Under the pieces are notes generated by a model. The model was not told where the DNA came from. It did no database searches and saw only the letters and a list, made by a program, of their open reading frames with translations. Below, in pieces: positions 9,628 through 43,116 of a stretch of 50,065 nucleotides of DNA. How positions within the stretch are numbered: the first letter of the stretch is position 1; each line of letters opens with the position of its first letter. A program made the translations under genes and the position numbers. Origin of the DNA: Flavobacteriales bacterium (GTDB taxonomy: Bacteria; Bacteroidota; Bacteroidia; Flavobacteriales_D; UBA2798); assembly GCA_046289975.1 (NCBI GenBank), contig JBKBUQ010000003.1, forward strand, positions 1,252 through 51,316. Reading direction: 5' to 3'.

Positions 9628-10131
9628 TCAAAACCCCTCCGACCTAAATTCAGGGAGGATGTTCTTTCTTTTTATCCTGTCCCCCAAACTAGTATAGTAC
9701 AAATAAAACGCTGCAAGCTGGTTATGGATATTAAGGTGTAATTTTAATTCGACAAACTTTGCCAAGGGCGACCGCACCTTTAGGCTATAGCGCAAAACCT
9801 TAATTTTTCCATTGTCCTTCACCTGAAAAAGACTGTAGGAGATTACTTGTTCGAGCAGTGTATTAATAGCATCATAACTTTCGGCATACATGCCTCTGTT
9901 AGAAACAATACTTCCGTGTACCCTCGGAGTAAGGTAATACTTATCCAAAAGATAATCCGCCCCCTCTTCCTTTGTAAACGAAACGGTAATATCCCGTGCT
10001 ATTTGCGACCCGGTTGCACGAACACGCTCAGGTACTTTATCTAATGGAACCTCTCTAAATTCTCTTGTGCTGCAAGAAATCAAACAAGCAATTACAATTA
10101 CTATAAAACGAAAGCTAAGAATTCTATTCAT
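9628..10131 (-). CDS. Putative lipoprotein, unknown function
   Basis: The internal ATG at 10131 gives MNRILSFRFIVIVIACLISCSTRE, a lipoprotein-type signal with Cys. The longer ORF-track start would overlap the upstream gene. Confidence 0.65.
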   Translation of the reverse strand: MNRILSFRFIVIVIACLISCSTREFREVPLDKVPERVRATGSQIARDITVSFTKEEGADYLLDKYYLTPRVHGSIVSNRGMYAESYDAINTLLEQVISYSLFQVKDNGKIKVLRYSLKVRSPLAKFVELKLHLNIHNQLAAFYLYYTSLGDRIKRKNILPEFRSEGF

Positions 10132-10796: not shown

Positions 10797-12428
10797 ATGA
10801 AAAAATCTCTATTCTTCACTGTGTTTACCCTCTCATTCATGGGTTTAGTAAATGCACAAAATGTAAACATCCCCGATCCTGCTTTTAAAGCTTACTTGCT
10901 GGGTGAGGCAGCAATTAACACCAATTCCGATGGAGAAATTCAGGTATCCGAGGCTGCTGCTTTCACAGGTGCGCTTTACGTTCCCAATAGCCCTAGCGTA
11001 GCTTCCCTTGCCGGGGTCGAAGCATTTACTGCAATAACAGGTTTAAATTGCTCCAATAACCCGATCACAAGTCTCGATCTTAGTCAGAATACTGCTCTTA
11101 CCTTTTTAGGTTGTGCAGGTACGCAGATCAGCAGCCTGGATCTAACCGCTAACCTGGCGCTTTTCAATGTCAACTTTTCGGATATTCCTACTTTAACTTC
11201 GATCAATATTGCCAATGGAAACAACACCATTTTTACCTCTTTCTTTGCGATTAATGTTCCCAACTTAACCTGCATTCAGGTAGACGACGCTGCCTATAGC
11301 ACGACCAACTGGGTCGGTATGAATTTTCAATTCGATGCGCAGATTAGCTTCAGCGAAGCTTGCAACGCTTGTTTTGTAAATATACCGGATGTAGTATTCA
11401 AAAATTATCTGATTTCAAATACAAGCATCAATACCAATAACAACAGCGAAATTGAGTGTTCAGAAGCAAGTGCCTACACCGGCTCCATCTCCTGCGGAAA
11501 CCTCTCCATTGCCGACCTTACCGGGATAGAAGCTTTTACCGCGCTTACAGCACTGTATTGCCAGAACAGCCAGCTTTCCACCCTTGATTTAAGCGCCAAC
11601 ACGGCATTGGAGGAATTGAATTGCGCCTATAACCAGCTCAGTTCATTAAATCTCAGCACAAACACCGCCCTGACTTACCTCGCATGTGTAAACAACCAGA
11701 TCACCGCGCTGGACCTGAGTCAAAATACAGCGTTGATTTACCTGGAGTGCGATAACAATGATTTGACCACTCTAAACCTAAGCGCCAATACTGCCCTTGA
11801 GGAAATTACTTGTTCTGAAAACACATTGACTTCTTTGAATGTAAACAATATAAGTGGCCTGACTTACATCGATTGCAGCAGAAACAACCTGACATCCCTA
11901 AATCTGAACGACAATCCCCTACTGACTGAAATCATTTGCGAATTCAATGCCATAACCGAGTTGCACCTGAGCATCCACACTCAACTGGAATATTTAATTG
12001 CACGCGACAATCAGTTAATGATCCTGGACATTACCAATGGAAACAACACCGCCATCATCGATTTCGATACACGAAACAACCCCAATCTCGGATGTATACA
12101 GGTTGACGATGCGGCATACAGTACGGCCAACTGGACCGATATCGATCCGGTTTCCGTGTTCAGTGAAAATTGCCAGATAGGGCTTGATGAGAATCAGGGA
12201 ACTTCTGATTTAATCAATACATCCATTTTCCCCAACCCCACCAATGGTCTTTTGCATTTAACAGCTTCGAGCAACATTGCGCTGACCACCATAACCGGAC
12301 AGGTAGTTGCAGATGCTAAAAACGTCCTCTCACTGGATATAAGTGGAGTAGCGCCGGGAGTTTACATCGCTACTCTTACTGACGAAAACGGCAAGGTTAA
12401 GAGCAGGATTAAAATCATCAAAGAATAA
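10797..12428 (+). CDS. Leucine-rich-repeat (BspA-like) surface protein with type A T9SS C-terminal sorting domain
   Basis: Signal peptide MKKSLFFTVFTLSFMGLVNAQ. About 22-residue LRRs are present (LDLSxNTALxxLxCxxNQLTxL). An internal duplication repeats NIPDxxFKxYL...CIQVDDAAYSTxNW. The C-terminus is SIFPNPTNGLLHLTAS...GVYIATLTDENGKVKSRIKIIKE. Confidence 0.85.
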   Translation: MKKSLFFTVFTLSFMGLVNAQNVNIPDPAFKAYLLGEAAINTNSDGEIQVSEAAAFTGALYVPNSPSVASLAGVEAFTAITGLNCSNNPITSLDLSQNTALTFLGCAGTQISSLDLTANLALFNVNFSDIPTLTSINIANGNNTIFTSFFAINVPNLTCIQVDDAAYSTTNWVGMNFQFDAQISFSEACNACFVNIPDVVFKNYLISNTSINTNNNSEIECSEASAYTGSISCGNLSIADLTGIEAFTALTALYCQNSQLSTLDLSANTALEELNCAYNQLSSLNLSTNTALTYLACVNNQITALDLSQNTALIYLECDNNDLTTLNLSANTALEEITCSENTLTSLNVNNISGLTYIDCSRNNLTSLNLNDNPLLTEIICEFNAITELHLSIHTQLEYLIARDNQLMILDITNGNNTAIIDFDTRNNPNLGCIQVDDAAYSTANWTDIDPVSVFSENCQIGLDENQGTSDLINTSIFPNPTNGLLHLTASSNIALTTITGQVVADAKNVLSLDISGVAPGVYIATLTDENGKVKSRIKIIKE

Positions 12429-35865: not shown

Positions 35866-35997
35866 GCGGTAAAAGTAAGACTGTGCGCGCAATATTTGCG
35901 AAATTGAATAAATTCATCCGTCCAACTGGAAAATTCAATTCCGTCCAGCCCTCAAAATAATGTAATCTTGAAGCGTAATACCCAAATCGTAAGTACA

Positions 35998-38424
35998 ATG
36001 ATTCGTTTTTATTCTGTATTGATGTTTTTCACACTACTCAGTCTTAATGGACTGGCACAACCCGTGCAAACCATTCGGGGCAAGGTGGTTGACAAGGAAA
36101 CCCAAATGCCATTACCGGGAGCGAATGTGCGCATATTGGGCGATAGCACAGGAAAGAACGGGGCATCAACCGATGCTGATGGCAAATTCAGAATAGAAGG
36201 TGTACCGGTCGGAAAAAGGTCTGTCAAGATCAGCTTCATCGGGTATATGGATAAAGTGTTGGACGTTGAAGTAAGCTCCGCTAAAGAAATTGTACTTTCC
36301 ATTGAACTGGAAGAATCGGCAACAACCATTGCAGAAGTGGAAGTGGTAGCGAGACAACGTGGAGAGGTAAACAACGACATGGCACTCACCAGCACACGAT
36401 CGTTTGATGTTGCAGAGACCGAACGATACGCCGGCTCACGTGGCGACCCTGCACGAATGGCTTCTAACTTTGCCGGTGTACAAGGTGCCGATGACTCACG
36501 GAATGATATTGTGGTGAGAGGAAACTCACCATTGGGTGTGCTCTACAAATTCGAAGGTTTTGATCTTCCCAATCCCAATCACTTTGCAATTGCAGGTTCG
36601 GCAGGCGGACCGGTGAGCGTGCTCAACAATAAAGTACTGGCAAATTCTGATTTTTTTACCTCTGCATTTCCTGCTGAATATGGCAATTCAACTTCGGCCG
36701 TTTTCGATTTGCGTATGCGTCCGGGCAACAACCAAAAACACGAATTCTCCGGTCAGCTCGGATTTCTCGGAACTGAACTAGCTGCAGAAGGGCCCATCAA
36801 TAAAAAAACAGGTTCCTCGTATATGCTGGTCTACCGCTATTCCACATTGAGTCTTTTTCAATCCTTGGGAATTAGTCTGGGCACCGATGCTGTTCCGCGC
36901 TACCAGGACCTCTCCTTCAAGTTCAATTTCCCCACAAAAAAAGGGGGCAACCTCTCCTTTTTCGGTATTGGAGGTAAATCGCTGATCGATATCCTTATTT
37001 CCAACCAGACAGCGCCGAAAGCAGATTTTTACGGTGAAGACGATCGCGACCAGTATTTCCGGACACAAATGGGGATGACGGGAATTACCTACACGAAAAC
37101 CATCAACGAAAAAACATTCATGCGTGTGGGAATTGCACAGGCACACGAACAAAACCGTGCCGAACATTTTTACATTCTTCGTCACGTAGATGCTGCAACC
37201 AATCTTTTTGTGGTTGATTCCATCTACCAGATCCTGAATTACCGCTTCAGGGTGAACCGCACAACCGGTATGGTAAGTTTTAATACCAAACTCAACAAGC
37301 AGCATGTTTTACGCTACGGAATCAACCTCAACATGATCCGTTTTAACATGTGGGATTCTGCCGTAAGTTTTATCGACGATCAGTGGAAACACCGTTGGCA
37401 AAACGATGAATACGGATTGCTCGGACAAGCCTACCTCCAATGGAAATGGCGCCCCAACGAAAAACTGGCAATGACAGCAGGATTACATAGTCAGTTCTTT
37501 AGCATCTCACAAAGTATTTCACCCATTGAGCCGCGAATCGGAATGCGTTATACCATCAACAACAAAAGCGCAGTATTCTTCGGCACAGGACTCCATTCGC
37601 AAACACAACCCTATTACACGTATTTCTATCGGTACCAAAATCCGGATGGAAGTCTGAAAGAACCCCACAACAAAGGCATGGGCTTTACCAAAAGTTTTCA
37701 TTCTGTTTTGGGATACGATTATGCATTTAACCCCACTATGCGCTTGAAAGCAGAAACCTATTATCAATACCTGTACGAAATACCTGTTGAGCAAAATCCA
37801 AGTTCGTTTTCACTCACCAATATGGGTTCCGGATTTTCCCGGTTCTTTCCGGATACATTGGTAAACAAAGGCACCGCGCGCAACTACGGGGTGGAAGTTA
37901 CACTTGAAAAATTCTTTAATAAAAGTTTCTTCTTTTTGGTTACCGGTTCTGTATTCGATGCAAAATACCGCGGCAGCGACGACACCTTGCGTAATACCGA
38001 TTACAATACAAAATATGCAGCTAATTTCCTTTTTGGAAAAGAATTCAGCATCAATAAAAAATCAACGATTGGACTTGGCGCAAAATTCACCACTGTAGGC
38101 GGACGCTGGCACGGCTATGTAGATTCGCTGGCCTCTGCAACAAACAACGAGCTTATCTTTCGTAAAGACGGCAACAACTCCATGCAGTTTCGTCCCTATT
38201 ACCGTTTCGATTTAAAGATCAATTACAAGATCAACGCAAAAAAGATCACACATGAAATTGCGCTTGACCTGGTGAATGTACTTGGAGTACAAAACATTCT
38301 CAACCTCACTTTTAATCCCGGTAACACTGCAATACCCTCCGGAAAAAACGATCCACCACGTTATTCGAGTTTCAATTACCAGCTCGGATTCCTGCCGTTG
38401 TTTTATTATAGAATCGATTTTTAG
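35998..38424 (+). CDS. TonB-dependent outer-membrane receptor with N-terminal carboxypeptidase-regulatory-like domain
   Basis: Signal peptide MIRFYSVLMFFTLLSLNGLAQ. IRGKVVDKETQMPLPGANVRI...GKFRIEGVPVGKRSVKISFIGY is CarboxypepD_reg-like. The plug shows RGDPARM..F.GVQG...ND.VVRGNSP. The barrel ends in an aromatic residue (YYRIDF). Confidence 0.88.
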   Translation: MIRFYSVLMFFTLLSLNGLAQPVQTIRGKVVDKETQMPLPGANVRILGDSTGKNGASTDADGKFRIEGVPVGKRSVKISFIGYMDKVLDVEVSSAKEIVLSIELEESATTIAEVEVVARQRGEVNNDMALTSTRSFDVAETERYAGSRGDPARMASNFAGVQGADDSRNDIVVRGNSPLGVLYKFEGFDLPNPNHFAIAGSAGGPVSVLNNKVLANSDFFTSAFPAEYGNSTSAVFDLRMRPGNNQKHEFSGQLGFLGTELAAEGPINKKTGSSYMLVYRYSTLSLFQSLGISLGTDAVPRYQDLSFKFNFPTKKGGNLSFFGIGGKSLIDILISNQTAPKADFYGEDDRDQYFRTQMGMTGITYTKTINEKTFMRVGIAQAHEQNRAEHFYILRHVDAATNLFVVDSIYQILNYRFRVNRTTGMVSFNTKLNKQHVLRYGINLNMIRFNMWDSAVSFIDDQWKHRWQNDEYGLLGQAYLQWKWRPNEKLAMTAGLHSQFFSISQSISPIEPRIGMRYTINNKSAVFFGTGLHSQTQPYYTYFYRYQNPDGSLKEPHNKGMGFTKSFHSVLGYDYAFNPTMRLKAETYYQYLYEIPVEQNPSSFSLTNMGSGFSRFFPDTLVNKGTARNYGVEVTLEKFFNKSFFFLVTGSVFDAKYRGSDDTLRNTDYNTKYAANFLFGKEFSINKKSTIGLGAKFTTVGGRWHGYVDSLASATNNELIFRKDGNNSMQFRPYYRFDLKINYKINAKKITHEIALDLVNVLGVQNILNLTFNPGNTAIPSGKNDPPRYSSFNYQLGFLPLFYYRIDF

Positions 38425-38446
38425 GGTTAGAGATGATAATATTTAA

Positions 38447-38604
38447 AGTGTTGAGGGTAAATTTCTGAAGGTCTTTAACCCCAATATTTGCGGCAACGAA
38501 AGTCTTTCTATTGATCTCGACCTGAGTAAAATGGCGTCTATTTAATTCATACGGTGAATGCGAATGGAAATCAGGTAGTGAAGAAAATGGTAGTCAATAA
38601 CTGA
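38447..38604 (+). pseudogene. Relic 3' end of a T9SS type A sorting domain (frameshifted, no gene body)
   Basis: It translates as SVEGKFLKVFNPNICGNESLSIDLDLS, then a 2-nt indel, then VYLIHTVNANGNQVVKKMVVNN-stop. This parallels SVEIYTLSGACIHQQNAFGNESLTIDLDLSNGVYFIHAINAKGNPIVKRVVVAK-stop at 41315-41479. The core 38491-38529 matches 41368-41406 at 38 of 39 nt. Confidence 0.8.
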
Positions 38605-38619
38605 GCTTTTTTAATCGAT

Positions 38620-38895
38620 TTATTTTTTCTTTTGATTTTCAACAAAAGAAAAAAGTTCCGCCGGTGAAATTTTTAACGCTCGTGAAATTGCAAATAATGT
38701 TGAGGCAGTAGGATTAATTTGCCCCTTTTCAATCCTAAAAATTTGCGATAAGGCTAGCCCAGATTCAAACGCCAATTCTTCTTGAGTAAATCCTTTTAGC
38801 TTTCGGATTTGCCGCAATTTCTGCCCCAATAAATCAAGCCCTTCCTGATCGCGAATTAATACTCTTTTTGCGGATTTTTTTCGGGTTCCTGACAT
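38620..38895 (-). CDS. XRE-family helix-turn-helix transcriptional regulator
   Basis: LRQIRKLKGFTQEELAFESGLALSQIFRIEKGQINPTASTLFAISRALKISPAELF is a canonical Cro/C1-type HTH. Length 91 aa. Confidence 0.9.
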   Translation of the reverse strand: MSGTRKKSAKRVLIRDQEGLDLLGQKLRQIRKLKGFTQEELAFESGLALSQIFRIEKGQINPTASTLFAISRALKISPAELFSFVENQKKK

Positions 38896-38929
38896 CCTTC
38901 AAATAGAATCAGGAAAAAAATCTCACACC

Positions 38930-38977
38930 ACAGCACTTGTGCTGTAATTTTTATCATAATTAAGCACTTGTGCTTAA
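38930..38977. promoter_or_regulatory. Twin palindromic operator candidates sharing the core AGCACTTGTGCT
   Basis: ACAGCACTTGTGCTGT (38930-38945) and TTAAGCACTTGTGCTTAA (38960-38977) are perfect palindromes. Their centres are 31 bp apart. They lie in the divergent intergenic region between the XRE gene and the downstream plus-strand genes. Confidence 0.6.
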
Positions 38978-38994
38978 TTTATAAATCAAATTTT

Positions 38995-39066
38995 ATGAGA
39001 CAAAAACTATTCGTTTTGACCCTTGTTCTAATATCGGCACAATTGGTTGCAGGAAACAAGAGGTAG
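38995..39066 (+). CDS. 23-codon signal-peptide-like mini-ORF (probable detached N-terminus of the next gene)
   Basis: MRQKLFVLTLVLISAQLVAGNKR-stop. It is in a different frame from ATG 39072, and that frame is open back to 38985. A single-nt indel near 39054-39066 would fuse the two. Confidence 0.35.
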   Translation: MRQKLFVLTLVLISAQLVAGNKR

Positions 39067-39071
39067 ATAAC

Positions 39072-40025
39072 ATGCAACAAAATTTTGTGGTGCCAACAGA
39101 TCCTTCAAAAATCGATCAGATTCTTAGTAAATTCGAAGAACAAATCCGTAATGGGAATCGTTCAAATGAAGTGTTCAACCTCGAAAGTGCCATTTGGCAT
39201 TTAGAAGGGCTTCTTAATAAAGAGTATAGCCGTTTAGATATTGTGCCAGATTCAACATTTTATCTTACCAACCAATTCAGTCTTAATAACCGCAACGAGT
39301 TTACTGTATCTGATTTAAATACGATTTATACCGATTTATCTTCTTACCTTGAGGGCAATATAGGGGCAAATCGTTTTTGCCGTGTTATTGATCTAGGTGC
39401 AGCTGTGAACCCCGGGGACATTACAATTTCTTTTGAAGTTAACGCAACCAATGAAAACATTCCTGAAGACAGGTCAGGAAGGTCATTTACTGATTTTAGC
39501 CCGGGAAACAGTTTTGTAGCATACTCATTTCAATCTGCTACTGGTTGCCATCAATATACACCAGACATCAACAATGCAGCTAAAAAAATTAATGATAAAT
39601 TGGATTGGCGCTTCAACATTGCCGCAATGGAATTCGATTGTTACTTTACAAACGTAACCGCTTGGACTCCTGATCCCAATGGCTTCACATTTGGAACATC
39701 AACTAATGTTTCATGCAACCCAGGCTGCTTATATACAGCAGGACATCTTGACTTAATTTGGAAGGGTATTACACCTTCTATTATGTTAGGATATACACCT
39801 CTTCAAAACTACCTTAATCTGGCACATAGTCAGATTTCCTTTTTAATTCCGCCTTATCCCTATCAAGTTTGTGATATTGATTATGGGGCCAGATGGATGT
39901 CTGATGACACACCTAATTGCCATCCATATATTGTAAACAACTATTGTTGCTCACAAACTTATTCTGTGAAGTTTTATCACTATTATAGATGGAAATATGG
40001 TATTCAAATATGCAGAAGACAGTAA
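39072..40025 (+). CDS. Cys-rich protein of unknown function (no signal peptide in the current frame)
   Basis: 317-aa ORF with about 12 Cys concentrated in the C-terminal half. It overlaps the next gene by 16 nt. No family was recognised. Confidence 0.6.
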   Translation: MQQNFVVPTDPSKIDQILSKFEEQIRNGNRSNEVFNLESAIWHLEGLLNKEYSRLDIVPDSTFYLTNQFSLNNRNEFTVSDLNTIYTDLSSYLEGNIGANRFCRVIDLGAAVNPGDITISFEVNATNENIPEDRSGRSFTDFSPGNSFVAYSFQSATGCHQYTPDINNAAKKINDKLDWRFNIAAMEFDCYFTNVTAWTPDPNGFTFGTSTNVSCNPGCLYTAGHLDLIWKGITPSIMLGYTPLQNYLNLAHSQISFLIPPYPYQVCDIDYGARWMSDDTPNCHPYIVNNYCCSQTYSVKFYHYYRWKYGIQICRRQ

Positions 40026-41479
40026 TCTTAATTATATTCTGTATGCATGCTGTTTTGACTCAGGGTCAAAACAGCATGCTCTATTTTCCACAATTTGAGA
40101 ATAACGTCAACCCTAAGTCAAATGGAACAACTTCTACATGGCTTTATTTTCTCTCATCCAATTCTGATAATTTATACTCTGAGTTTTTCATAACATCTTT
40201 TAATCTACAAAATATTGTTTTTCAAAGCATTTCACTTGGCTCATCAATTGCATTAACTGACATTGTAACACACAAACATTCTTCTTCATTATTCTTTGCC
40301 AATAATCACCCGCATATCGACAATCAACATTTCACTTCAAGTATCATCAAATTAAACAGCGGAATAATAACTGACAGCGTCTTCATCTCCTCTTCTCCTC
40401 ACAATAGCAAAATAATTGATTTAGCTGCAACTGACACAAATACAATAGTTGTTGTTTCATACGATCAATTTTTAACGCAACAAGCGCTTTATATTACACT
40501 TTGGGACACCAGCCTAAACTTCATTGATACCATTGCGGCAAACATTAATACCGGAAACACAATCGTACCCAGCAGACTCCGCATTGCGTTTAAAGATGGT
40601 AATATTGTATTGGCAGGTTTCGGAACTAATACCGGTGCATTTTTTAACGAATGCTATAAAATTGTGATTGACGCCAATGGCAACTACACCAACACCATTT
40701 CAATGGATTTTGTTCCCTATGTACAAAGTCAATTCAGTCAATCAGAAGCTGTAACAGCCAGTGTATTTAACCTTTTGGGGCCTGGAAACGACAGTATTTT
40801 TCCATTTAACAGCGAATATTCCACCGGAATACCTTGGGGTTGTTATTTTGGTTTACTCAAAGTCAATGATCAAAATATTCCTGTTGACCATGTCTTTTAC
40901 ACATTACCTACTCCTGAACAAATATCCTATTCGGACATGTGTTTTGGTAGCGACTCTTCTCTTATGGTTCTTGCTGTAGTTGATCGGTGTTGGGGAAGTA
41001 ATTTTGGAGGAGAGTCTATCAAACTATTAAAATTTGATCGCGAATTAAATCTGCTTTGGGAGCGCCATTATCCAAGAGATCCTGATATTATTTCTTATTT
41101 CTCTTCCAGTTTTACAGCAATTCCGGTAGGATATTGCGTTGCAGGTATAGCATATGAAGACATAACGTATACTCCTAAAGGGTTCCTCTTGTTTGTAGAT
41201 GAAAACGGTTCGCCGTTGGAAGTAAAAGAACAAATTAACACAACTAGTCTTTCAATTTTCCCCAACCCCAACAACGGAAGCTTTCATCTAACCTGGCCTC
41301 AGGAAAAAATTCTTAGTGTAGAAATTTACACCCTCAGCGGCGCATGCATACACCAGCAAAACGCATTCGGCAACGAAAGTCTTACTATTGATCTCGACCT
41401 GAGTAACGGAGTCTATTTCATTCATGCGATCAACGCCAAAGGAAACCCTATTGTGAAAAGGGTGGTGGTTGCGAAGTGA
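40010..41479 (+). CDS. Secreted protein of unknown function with type A T9SS C-terminal sorting domain
   Basis: ATG 40010 gives MQKTVILIIFCMHAVLTQGQ. The C-terminus is SLSIFPNPNNGSFHLTWPQEKILSVEIYTLSG...GVYFIHAINAKGNPIVKRVVVAK. Confidence 0.8.
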   Translation: MQKTVILIIFCMHAVLTQGQNSMLYFPQFENNVNPKSNGTTSTWLYFLSSNSDNLYSEFFITSFNLQNIVFQSISLGSSIALTDIVTHKHSSSLFFANNHPHIDNQHFTSSIIKLNSGIITDSVFISSSPHNSKIIDLAATDTNTIVVVSYDQFLTQQALYITLWDTSLNFIDTIAANINTGNTIVPSRLRIAFKDGNIVLAGFGTNTGAFFNECYKIVIDANGNYTNTISMDFVPYVQSQFSQSEAVTASVFNLLGPGNDSIFPFNSEYSTGIPWGCYFGLLKVNDQNIPVDHVFYTLPTPEQISYSDMCFGSDSSLMVLAVVDRCWGSNFGGESIKLLKFDRELNLLWERHYPRDPDIISYFSSSFTAIPVGYCVAGIAYEDITYTPKGFLLFVDENGSPLEVKEQINTTSLSIFPNPNNGSFHLTWPQEKILSVEIYTLSGACIHQQNAFGNESLTIDLDLSNGVYFIHAINAKGNPIVKRVVVAK

Positions 41480-41583
41480 AGTAACACCCTGTCTGGATGG
41501 TTATTAATACCTAAACACCCAGTTTTGCACTTTCTAAAGTGCTAAATCACCAATTCCGCAATAAAATTCTGAATTAAAGCCCC

Positions 41584-43116
41584 TTACAAGCTTCCCGTTT
41601 CCAGAAAACGCTTCCATTCCTCAAACTGGGAATTTCGGATAACGCGGGGAAATTTATTTTGTCCGCCTGCTTTGCCTTTGAGTTCCATATAAAGGTAAAA
41701 ACGCTCAATAGGAATCACTTCCAGAATAGGATCCTTGAGCGCGTGTTTGCGTTCGGTGGTGTAATCGTCGTTGAGTTCACAAAGTGCTTCGTCCAGCTTG
41801 CGCTTAAATGCTTCCCCGTCCACATCTTTATCTACACCAATGTACCAGTGGTGACGGAAACTGCCCTCGAAAGGTTCGCCGGCTACGGTGTATTCGTTTG
41901 CGTTAACGCCAAAAGCATCCATGGCCTTACGCATCCCCATGTTCATATTATCGACCGACAAATGTTCGCCGCAAAGCGAAAGGAAATGTTTGGTTCGGCC
42001 GCTAATAATCATTTCAAAATTCTTCTTATCGCGAAAACGTACAGTATCACCAATTAGATAACGCCATGCACCGGAACAAGTGGAAATAAGGATGGCATAA
42101 TCTACATCTTCCTCCACTTTTTCAATCGTCAATACCTCCGGGTTTTCACGGATGTTGCCATCAGCATCGAAATTGGAATCATTAAATGGAACAAACTCAA
42201 AAAAGACCCAGTTATCCAAAATGAGTTGCATTCCCTTTTGGTGTTCCGCCAACTGTAAAGCAAGGAATCCCTCTGAAGCAAGATAAGTATCAAGGTAATG
42301 AATATCGCGGCCCAGGTAGCTGCGGAACGATTCGCGGTAAGGTGTAAATGAAACCCCGCCGTGAACATAAATACTGAGGTTAGGCCAGATTTCGTGTATA
42401 TGTTTTACGTTGTGAAACTTCTTGATGCGATCAAACAACATCTGAATCCAGGCAGGAACTCCGCAAATAATACCGATGTCCCATTTAGGAGCTTCCATCG
42501 CCATCGCATCCAGTTTGTCGTTCCAATCAAGAATCTGCGCCATCTTCTTTCCGGGTTTGTAAAAACGATCAAACCAGCGGGGAATATTGTTCTGCAAAAT
42601 TCCACTGAGATCGCCTTCGTAACCGGCATCTATTTTTCGCAATGTGGTGGTACCTCCAACCATCAAAACGCCTTTCTCGTAAAACTCCGCAGGTAAATTG
42701 AAATCAGTAATGGAAAGCATCTGACGAACACTGGCCTTGCGGACTGCTTTGATCTGTCGCAAGCTTACCGGTACACGCTTGGAAGGAGATCCGGATGTGC
42801 CTGAGGTAAGTGCAAAATACTTGATCTTACCGGGCCAGGTGATGTTCCGTTTTCCCTTGAGTGTATGCACCCAAAACTCGCGGTGCAATTTATCATAATC
42901 GTAAATGGGTACGCGTCGGCTGAATTCCCCATACACATCTTCAACCAGCAACATTTCCTTAAACCCGTAACGCTTACCCATACGGGTGCTGCGCGCTTTC
43001 GATAAAAGTTTTCGAAGCGTTTTCTCCTGTAAACCCGCATCGTACTTCGTCAGGCGTTTACGAATGCGCTTGTTGATCTTGAGCAGTTCGGATAATATGG
43101 TTCCAACGTAGGCCAT
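41584..43116 (-). CDS. GH3 auxin-responsive-promoter family protein (adenylate-forming acyl acid amido synthetase-like)
   Basis: FALTSGTSGSPSKRVPVS (AMP-binding P-loop-like). Size and overall layout are typical of the bacterial GH3 family. The ATG at 43116 is preferred over the TTG at 43125. Confidence 0.75.
   Translation of the reverse strand: MAYVGTILSELLKINKRIRKRLTKYDAGLQEKTLRKLLSKARSTRMGKRYGFKEMLLVEDVYGEFSRRVPIYDYDKLHREFWVHTLKGKRNITWPGKIKYFALTSGTSGSPSKRVPVSLRQIKAVRKASVRQMLSITDFNLPAEFYEKGVLMVGGTTTLRKIDAGYEGDLSGILQNNIPRWFDRFYKPGKKMAQILDWNDKLDAMAMEAPKWDIGIICGVPAWIQMLFDRIKKFHNVKHIHEIWPNLSIYVHGGVSFTPYRESFRSYLGRDIHYLDTYLASEGFLALQLAEHQKGMQLILDNWVFFEFVPFNDSNFDADGNIRENPEVLTIEKVEEDVDYAILISTCSGAWRYLIGDTVRFRDKKNFEMIISGRTKHFLSLCGEHLSVDNMNMGMRKAMDAFGVNANEYTVAGEPFEGSFRHHWYIGVDKDVDGEAFKRKLDEALCELNDDYTTERKHALKDPILEVIPIERFYLYMELKGKAGGQNKFPRVIRNSQFEEWKRFLETGSL

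Follow-up and report, generated by a model that had tools for sequence, protein, structure and literature searches.

The stretch of DNA analysed here, hereafter the window, comprises 50,065 nt from a Flavobacteriales bacterium (GCA_046289975.1, contig JBKBUQ010000003.1, positions 1,252-51,316 of the forward strand), and all coordinates below are window positions. At 38442-41599, between a TonB-receptor-like gene and a GH3-family gene, lies an island with a cargo gene of the secretion system of type IX (T9SS), which encodes a C-terminal sorting domain (CTD), and, at its left edge, a bodiless remnant of another such domain, called the relic. In the comparison loci and contigs (L-numbers), the same interval can hold a different T9SS cargo gene, cargoA, while the window gene at 40010-41479 is referred to as cargoB and the two alleles of the interval as A-type and W-type, respectively. 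The interval is probably a replacement island with two known alleles, in which an older cargo was replaced and the DNA coding for the secretion tag was recombined. The features involved are the following:

35968-38424, plus strand: TonB-dependent-receptor-like outer-membrane protein with an N-terminal CarboxypepD_reg domain (Pfam PF13715/PF13620), the left conserved flank
38442-41599: strain-variable replacement island, W-type allele, 37% GC, delimited by the limits of homology to the sister loci
38442-38490: junction filler, examined by local alignment
38491-38604, plus strand: relic, the last ~37 codons of a cargoA-type T9SS CTD, assigned by BLASTN, segment identities, informative sites and fragment Pfam/TIGRFAM matches
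38491-38529, plus strand: left copy of the 39-nt core repeat, given by the repeat finder as exact blocks of 16 and 22 nt
40010-41479, plus strand: cargoB, T9SS cargo with a type A CTD (Por_Secre_tail, TIGR04183)
41258-41406, plus strand: cargoA-type patch of the cargoB CTD, that is, the 5' segment and the right core copy (41368-41406), recognised by identity to cargoA of L001/L161/L162
41584-43125, minus strand: GH3-family (auxin-responsive-promoter-type) adenylating enzyme (Pfam GH3, GH3_M, GH3_C), the right conserved flank

One outstanding direct repeat was detected by the repeat finder in 38300-41600, formed by 38491-38529 and 41368-41406, with 38 of its 39 nt identical, a spacing of 2877 nt and a sole mismatch dividing the core into the two exact blocks, which confirms the core common to the orphan CTD and the end of cargoB that a preliminary description of this DNA had pointed out. 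Beyond the core, the pairwise alignment of the relic with cargoB runs to both stop codons, the relic having two additional nucleotides in the A-run at 38528-31, and the local nucleotide alignment of the relic with the intact CTD scores 58, against a baseline of 9.0 +/- 1.4 for shuffled sequences, which served for all local nucleotide alignments. The peptides described as parallel through the stop are therefore indeed so, with one +2-nt indel. The relic can be read in two frames, as SVEGKFLKVFNPNICGNESLSIDLDLSK up to the stop at 38543-45 and as NGVYLIHTVNANGNQVVKKMVVNN up to the stop at 38602-04; in translation, it runs as ..GNESLSIDLDLSK and then, two bases out of frame, as NGVYLIHTVNANGNQVVKKMVVNN and its stop, where the intact gene has ..GNESLTIDLDLSNGVYFIHAINAKGNPIVKRVVVAK and its stop. 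Its lesions are thus a frameshift of +2 nt (38528-38531) and a premature TAA (38543-38545), while the stop of the original frame is still present at 38602-38604. When repaired, the peptide matches positions 30-75 of the 75 of Por_Secre_tail (PF18962) with an E-value of 6e-4 and 20.4 bits, under the cutoff of 27 bits, as expected of a fragment, as well as positions 41-72 of TIGR04183, for which the cutoff is 23 bits. It is an incomplete domain with no upstream body and not one open frame, and the stop codon of the TonB receptor lies 66 nt upstream. By these lesions, the relic is a pseudogene fragment.

Regarding its extent, previously given as 38447-38604, the assignment holds from ~38491 onwards, but not for the first 44 nt (38447-38490), which are without demonstrable homology. 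The whole filler at 38442-38490, including the codons 'SVE', was compared with the 5' part of the CTD, the spacer between the TonB receptor and cargoA and cargoA itself, none of which scored above shuffles, and its interpretation as a remnant of any of the three was rejected. A six-frame scan of the 50 kb with CTD profiles returned three intact CTDs and a single orphan, the relic. The other two CTDs of the window (ending at 2907 and 12428) imply, by their presence, a T9SS organism; their similarity to the relic in local alignments is not above that of shuffles, as the preliminary description had stated. In an exhaustive HMMER search of 1.84 billion representative proteins, cargoA was the sole full-length homologue of cargoB (E 5e-58) and all CTDs other than that of cargoA were <=46% identical, so that the relic is closer to 41315-41479 than to unrelated CTDs. 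This specificity indicates that the relic, the cargoB CTD and the cargoA CTD belong to one specific lineage.

Within this lineage, the relic was first taken for a copy of the end of the intact neighbouring gene, a view that had to be abandoned. BLASTN aligns it to L001 with 89% identity over 102 nt (E 8e-30), and after the core (segment b1 below) it is 85.5% identical to cargoA and 69% to cargoB. Over the core and b1, which give 2 and 62 aligned columns with the indel set aside, it agrees with the A-type at 13 informative sites and with cargoB at four, and its peptide agrees with cargoA at 30/42 positions versus 26/41 for cargoB. Being nearer to cargoA than to cargoB after the core, it is the stub of a cargoA-type gene and not a copy of its neighbour. 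Eight changes are private to the relic, of which three are G/C to A (38544, 38551 and 38587) and five fall within its diverged last 11 nt. Its similarity to cargoA stops 11 nt ahead of its stop codon, which places the joint on the XRE side in the last codons of the old gene. Since the core is not significantly better conserved than the tail within the relic (Fisher p 0.09-0.20), it is not claimed here as an att-like site.

The CTD of cargoB itself is a complete one, matched by PF18962 at residues 416-487 of 489 (42.8 bits) and by TIGR04183 (48 bits), both over the cutoff. Nevertheless, its identity to cargoA, set against that of the relic, changes abruptly along the domain:

segment a, 41258-41367, from FPNPNNG: cargoB and cargoA 92.7-95.5% identical; relic not alignable to either
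core, 39 nt: cargoB and cargoA 92-95%; relic and cargoA 95-97%; relic and cargoB 38/39
segment b1, 41407-41468, 62 nt, the divergent 3' segment: cargoB and cargoA 69-73%; relic and cargoA 85.5%; relic and cargoB 69%
segment b2, the last 11 nt: cargoB and cargoA 10/11; relic and cargoA 5/11; relic and cargoB 6/11

Between cargoB and cargoA, 8-10 of the 149 nt of segment a and the core are mismatched, versus 17-19 of the 62 nt of b1 (Fisher p 3e-6 to 1e-4), and identity breaks at the 5' edge of the CTD (41257/41258) and right after the core (41406/41407). In protein, the bodies are 25.4% identical and the CTDs 82%. The tail of cargoB (41408-41476) differs from cargoA in 13 of 23 codons, seven of them synonymous and six changing the amino acid, which is the pattern of an old, functional, divergent CTD end and not of decay. 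By these identities, the cargoB CTD is a chimera, in which 149 nt of cargoA type stand in frame between a foreign body and a divergent tail of 62 nt, and the sharp breakpoints at the CTD edges indicate that CTD-coding DNA was a recombination substrate. At ~41338-41352 and the homologous sites of L001, L161 and L162, differences cluster (..GACIHQQ / GACVYKQ / GARVHQQ), and this stretch accounts for most mismatches of the otherwise ~99%-identical patch.

The related loci hold the interval in its other state. A scan of genomes and metagenomes with the GH3 protein yielded L001, a metagenome-assembled genome of Flavobacteriales (UBA2798), and its metagenomic twin L081, which represent a single close lineage, the remaining matches being <=65% identical; L161, L162, L163 and L166 were added through look-ups of exact proteins. 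The flanks match L001, L081, L161-L164 and L166 at 93-100% (L001 93.5% and L161 94-96% overall). The receptor is 98.2% identical to that of L001 in protein, and the nucleotide identity to L161 is 98-100% over the last 1.5 kb to the island edge; compared with L161, ~1% of sites differ in the 1.5 kb on the left, where the last 250 nt before the island are identical, and ~2% in the 1.9 kb on the right. Homology to L001/L081/L161/L162/L166 stops at 38441, 17 nt past the receptor stop, and resumes at ~41600, within the last four GH3 codons (..ETGSL vs ..EKGEL before the stop). In the A-type interval, an intact cargoA of 480 aa starts 88 nt past the receptor stop and is followed by a convergent AAA_14/DUF4143 ATPase gene. 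Both genes are present in L001/L081/L161/L162, as seen in the gene tables for L161 and L162, while L163 has the GH3 gene and a partial open reading frame (ORF) in the position of the ATPase and L164 ends inside GH3, short of the interval. The alternative-cargo state foreseen for related genomes in this interval was therefore found. L001 and L161 differ by 6% across the A-type interval, from which it follows that this allele is old and widespread; the cargoA protein cluster has eight members, one of them on 10 contigs. 

The W-type arrangement recurs in L165, a Logan contig 100% identical over the 36930-41126 that it covers, taking in the left junction, the relic, the XRE gene, the ORFan and most of cargoB. 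None of the sister loci has the XRE gene, the ORFan or cargoB, each of which is a singleton in the protein collection. What characterises a replacement island was found here, namely syntenic and similar flanks with different content, together with compositional and phyletic signs of import. What the sequences show, then, is that two alleles exist, that the relic is of the cargoA type and that the cargoB CTD is chimeric, with defined breakpoints.

Concerning base composition, the island has 37.1% GC, against a window mean of 42.0% (standard deviation 3.0) and 44.6-45.6% in the flanking genes, and the GC content at third codon positions (GC3) is 0.28-0.35 for the island genes, compared with 0.42-0.43 for the A-type genes and 0.47-0.49 for the flanks. 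Within cargoB, the body has 36.3% GC versus 45.9% in the CTD region (41258-41479). The module had been called AT-rich from spot counts of 28.3% and 50.0% GC; these are correct, but they exaggerate the contrast (37.1% vs 42.0%), and the CTD part is not AT-rich. About 5% of segments of equal size are equally GC-poor, such as 1.7-5.7 kb. Positions 1-10000 are as GC-poor as the island, with 3-kb segments down to 36% and GC3 of 0.32-0.33 in large ORFs, and include another CTD-bearing cargo (67-2907); consequently, low GC is not unique to the module.

Besides the relic and cargoB, the island and its right-hand spacer hold these features:

38620-38895, minus strand: XRE-family HTH regulator, 91 aa (HTH_3, E 4.5e-17)
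38930-38977: two palindromes, ACAGCACTTGTGCTGT (38930-38945) and TTAAGCACTTGTGCTTAA (38960-38977), with the core GCACTTGTGC in the sequence
38995-39066, plus strand: detached signal-peptide ORF MRQKLFVLTLVLISAQLVAGNKR, 23 codons, ending in TAG and +2 out of frame with the next ORF
39072-40025, plus strand: ORFan of 317 aa by ORF translation, with 10 Cys, nine of them in the C-terminal half
41526-41542: palindrome TGCACTTTCTAAAGTGC, 17 nt, kept inside the otherwise diverged spacer

This content agrees with what had been described between the two copies of the core, that is, an XRE regulator, palindromes, a detached signal peptide, a Cys-rich ORF and the cargo gene. The XRE product matches HTH_3 with 62.3 bits (cutoff 23) and is a singleton at 90% identity in the protein collection, its closest homologue (55% identical) being in L167, where the surroundings have 31% GC, adjoin a resolvase gene and a VapE-like gene and resemble a mobile element. 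The two GCACTTGTGC palindromes, located between divergent genes, are probable operators of the XRE regulator. The GCACTTGTGC core recurs 48 nt upstream of the start of the L167 homologue (L167 5953-5962) and, together with the mobile-like context, supports both the reading as operators and a mobile-element gene pool as the source of the regulator. The sequence of the signal-peptide ORF is identical in L165. The ORFan matches nothing in Pfam, NCBIfam, PHROG or PADLOC, a search of 5.8 billion proteins returned no homologue of it, and its AlphaFold2 (AF2) model is uninformative, with a predicted local distance difference test (pLDDT) of 32; it is probably a gene for a secreted protein or lipoprotein severed from its signal peptide through a frameshift.

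The N-terminus of cargoB, MQKTVILIIFCMHAVLTQG followed by QNS, resembles a signal peptide by inspection. Its AF2 model has a pLDDT of 53 and the top Foldseek matches are beta-propellers, so the body appears to be all-beta and probably a beta-propeller; PHROGs and PADLOC gave nothing for cargoB. At 40045-40079, within the signal-peptide coding region and 20 nt past the ORFan stop, lies an inverted repeat of 15 bp without mismatches, with a loop of 5 nt and a tail rich in T, which resembles a terminator or attenuator inside a coding region. 

On the side of the A-type, the ATPase (L001 11659-12858) has a match (E 6e-28) to PDC-S01, a candidate defence family of PADLOC; the window lacks such an ATPase, so that the swap also removed a possible defence gene. 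The palindrome TGCACTTTCTAAAGTGC, of which the window has one copy, is present twice upstream of the ATPase in A-type loci (L001 11584-11600 and 11616-11632) and is probably a protein-binding site. In L002 (11530-12366), whose GH3 is 65% identical, lspA and a membrane ORF of 223 aa are adjacent to GH3, with no TonB-type receptor and no cargo; this arrangement indicates that 35.9-41.6 kb of the window is a clade-specific gene-gain spot, and the lack of receptor and cargo makes L002 an outgroup unable to polarise the alleles. One of the contigs, L166, ends in an Illumina adapter (11289-11348, AGATCGGAAGAGC...) right after the CTD codons 'SVE'. The protein P0012, a cargoA ending in 'SVESFR' inside the CTD, was considered as a third junction and rejected, because its contig runs into this adapter, and P0012 is therefore a falsely truncated protein in public collections. 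Clustered differences between the window and L161 were noticed at 45100-45300 and 36400-36700, for example 31 window-private sites in 200 nt of a gene of the beta-lactamase family, and suggest that small recombination imports are frequent in the population.

Several explanations of this arrangement were weighed. It had been proposed that one crossover within the common CTD sequence brought in the whole 2.9-kb module at once (a Campbell-type insertion or a tag-anchored cassette exchange) of which the two copies would be the reciprocal products. Such an origin would account for the direct repeat (38/39 nt) bracketing the module, for the derivation of both copies from one CTD lineage otherwise unique in the 1.84 billion representative proteins and for the alternative cargo in the sister genomes. 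However, with the A-type as resident, it predicts a left copy made of resident 5' and incoming 3' parts and a right copy of incoming 5' and resident 3' parts, and the segments show the opposite: in the left copy no 5' part is recognisable and the 3' part resembles the resident (85.5%), and in the right copy it is the 5' part that resembles the resident (93-95%), the 3' part being of non-resident type (69-73%), so the repeats are not the reciprocal hybrids of resident and incoming sequences that an att duplication would leave. The alternative form of the model needs a pre-existing bodiless chromosomal CTD with an intact, in-frame and well-conserved tail. Moreover, no integrase or recombinase was found in the module by Pfam, NCBIfam and PHROGs, and the ATPase gene and the GH3 tail (last 4 codons) changed too. 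Due to the reversed hybrids, the lack of a recombinase and the loss of the ATPase, the one-step entry was rejected as very unlikely. Accordingly, of the earlier proposal that recombination at the sorting domain replaced an older cargo, the replacement stands, as does the recombination of CTD DNA, but not the single crossover at the shared tag.

An old balanced polymorphism, in which ancient alleles move whole by recombination at the flanks and the likeness of the CTDs reflects islets of gene conversion with no role in the assembly of the W-type, is unlikely. In its favour, the flanks of the window and L161 are 98-100% identical up to sharp edges, beyond which the island is wholly different; flank identity is mosaic along the region; the spacer and the last GH3 codons have diverged around a conserved palindrome; the divergence of the relic far exceeds that of the flanks; and T9SS surface proteins of Porphyromonas gingivalis are known to undergo such allelic exchange (PMC5266723). 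Yet it leaves unexplained why a foreign-looking, low-GC body abuts a resident-type CTD exactly at the domain boundary, as well as the origin of the relic, and it merely shifts the events to an unsampled lineage. Besides, no imported donor flank is left beside the island: at its left edge there is no window-private stretch, and on the right only a weak cluster of window-private differences at 41800-42200, not contiguous with the edge. Scarcely plausible is a duplication in situ, by which cargoA and cargoB would be tandem paralogues, the upstream copy having decayed to the relic here and the downstream one having been lost elsewhere, with no import. Their closely related CTDs and the fact that each is the sole full-length homologue of the other would fit; nevertheless, protein identity between the bodies is 25%, against a DNA identity of 93-95% between the 5' parts of the CTDs, neither the XRE gene nor the ORFan occurs in any sister assembly or in the databases, GC3 lies 12-19 points under that of the flanks and the sister genomes hold no trace of cargoB. 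A metagenomic chimera joined via the repeated CTD sequence could be suspected, because the window comes from a single contig of 51.3 kb, the repeat exceeds common k-mer sizes and the related contig L166 ends in adapter sequence inside the same CTD. This can be practically dismissed, since L165 reproduces 36930-41126 exactly, the frame of cargoB stays open through 41258 and 41407 and yields a complete CTD, and both flanks are syntenic with the sister genomes.

The replacement of an older cargo, with recombination of the tag-coding DNA, therefore remains the preferred reading. The imported low-GC block would consist of the XRE regulator with its putative operators, the Cys-rich ORFan with its frameshift and cargoB, which is distantly homologous to cargoA, and the relic would be the decayed last third of the sorting domain of a cargoA-type gene, left after the loss of its body. 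A crossover or a gene-conversion patch between CTD-coding sequences probably joined the incoming body to the resident-type secretion tag; the succession of events, and a guiding role of CTD homology at the joints, we infer. Two routes fit the data. In place, the low-GC block would have been imported beside cargoA, with replacement of the ATPase; a gene-conversion patch would then have passed from the cargoA CTD into that of cargoB; and deletion of the cargoA body would finally have removed also a direct repeat of 149 nt, by which the block would otherwise be destabilised. On the other route, an unsampled relative would already have put the allele together, and recombination at the flanks would have brought it in as a unit. 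At least three events in place, or the import of an already rearranged allele, are needed.

Some observations weigh against this reading or limit it. These loci represent two alleles only, and neither an intermediate nor a donor locus was found among them, so that any order and number of events is tentative. The relic differs from the nearest A-type sequence at 11 of 99 nt plus an indel (p about 5e-6 against a flank divergence of 2%), while the adjoining flanks differ from L161 by only 1-2%. Such a divergence, far above that of the flanks, favours import of the allele as a unit or flanks made uniform later on. In the latter case, the relic is much older than the flanks imply; in the former, it came with the imported allele and is not a remnant of the cargoA of this strain itself. 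In addition, the identity of the 149-nt patch could stem from repeated conversion between strains rather than from the original joining, and the junctions on the right-hand side (41258, 41407 and ~41600) are known from one assembly.

Replacement islands and homology-facilitated illegitimate recombination occur in naturally transformable bacteria. Like them, the present locus has non-homologous gene sets between conserved flanks, sharp edges, a shifted composition and short internal homologies as anchors. Unlike a simple insertion, however, the anchor is a sorting domain common to the outgoing and incoming genes, and the product is consequently an in-frame functional chimera. In polymorphic toxin loci (Rhs and contact-dependent inhibition (CDI) systems), the conserved part is N-terminal and the displaced orphan, located downstream, is a variable toxin tip with its immunity gene. 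A conserved segment as recombination anchor for the swap of a variable part, with displaced fragments adjoining the active gene as scars, is a feature in common with the island. In the island, however, the conserved part is the C-terminal tag and the variable part the N-terminal body, and the orphan lies upstream. The analogy with the C-terminal displacement of such loci, drawn at the outset, does not hold, as the orphan keeps the conserved tag only, with no variable module, and no toxin or immunity families were recognised in the module by Pfam, NCBIfam and PADLOC. The architecture of Rhs is summarised elsewhere (bioRxiv 10.1101/2025.05.08.652813).

Among T9SS proteins, the surface proteins of P. 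gingivalis (Kgp, RgpA, HagA and others) have strain-variable mosaic alleles unrelated to the core phylogeny, ascribed to natural transformation, homologous recombination and gene conversion (Dashper et al. 2017, PMC5266723). As in the island, alleles of CTD-bearing surface proteins vary between strains and conserved modules flank variable ones. P. gingivalis, however, exchanges variants of adhesin or catalytic domains within clearly orthologous genes, and the study describes neither a CTD relic nor a breakpoint inside the CTD, whereas the island swaps a whole body (25% identity) and neighbouring genes, with junctions at the CTD boundaries and a bodiless stub left behind. In Tannerella forsythia, the KLIKK proteases have different bodies with a nearly identical C-terminal extension and CTD, and a fusion of their genes with DNA coding for the common ends has been proposed (Ksiazek et al. 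2015, PMC4404884). They resemble the present case in that differing cargo bodies share a C-terminal end and a small ORF precedes each cargo gene. Nevertheless, the KLIKK proteases are six paralogues with unrelated catalytic domains in one genome, the fusion mechanism is untraced and breakpoints, alternative alleles and relics are unreported, while the present locus holds, depending on the strain, one or the other of two distantly homologous bodies. In the literature on T9SS cargo and gene conversion, no description of CTD-internal breakpoints or of a CTD stub as a scar was found.

Overall, the locus is one well-documented, strain-level allelic replacement with a mosaic surface-protein gene, fairly ordinary as such, and not a demonstrated mechanism. 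A general mechanism of cassette exchange for T9SS cargo, as envisaged in the preliminary description, is not established by a single locus. It is a doubtful idea that CTD-coding DNA serves as a portable homology cassette by which Bacteroidota graft foreign cargo bodies in frame onto a resident-type tag, with stubs as scars; if it were general, orphan CTD fragments would flag sites of intense cargo turnover throughout the phylum. For the strain itself, the functional outcome would be the swap of a secreted or surface protein, beta-propeller-like, now under a predicted XRE repressor. T9SS cargo repertoires vary widely among strains, and the route by which a new cargo becomes competent for secretion has rarely been traced. 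At this locus, the breakpoints between a foreign body and the resident-type sorting domain with which it is fused in frame are known to the base pair, and the stub of the older gene lies alongside. The locus is thus a testable lead on how foreign cargo gains a compatible T9SS tag. If the pattern recurs, it would explain the recruitment of new secreted proteins in Bacteroidota, and an orphan CTD fragment would be a marker of use to annotators.

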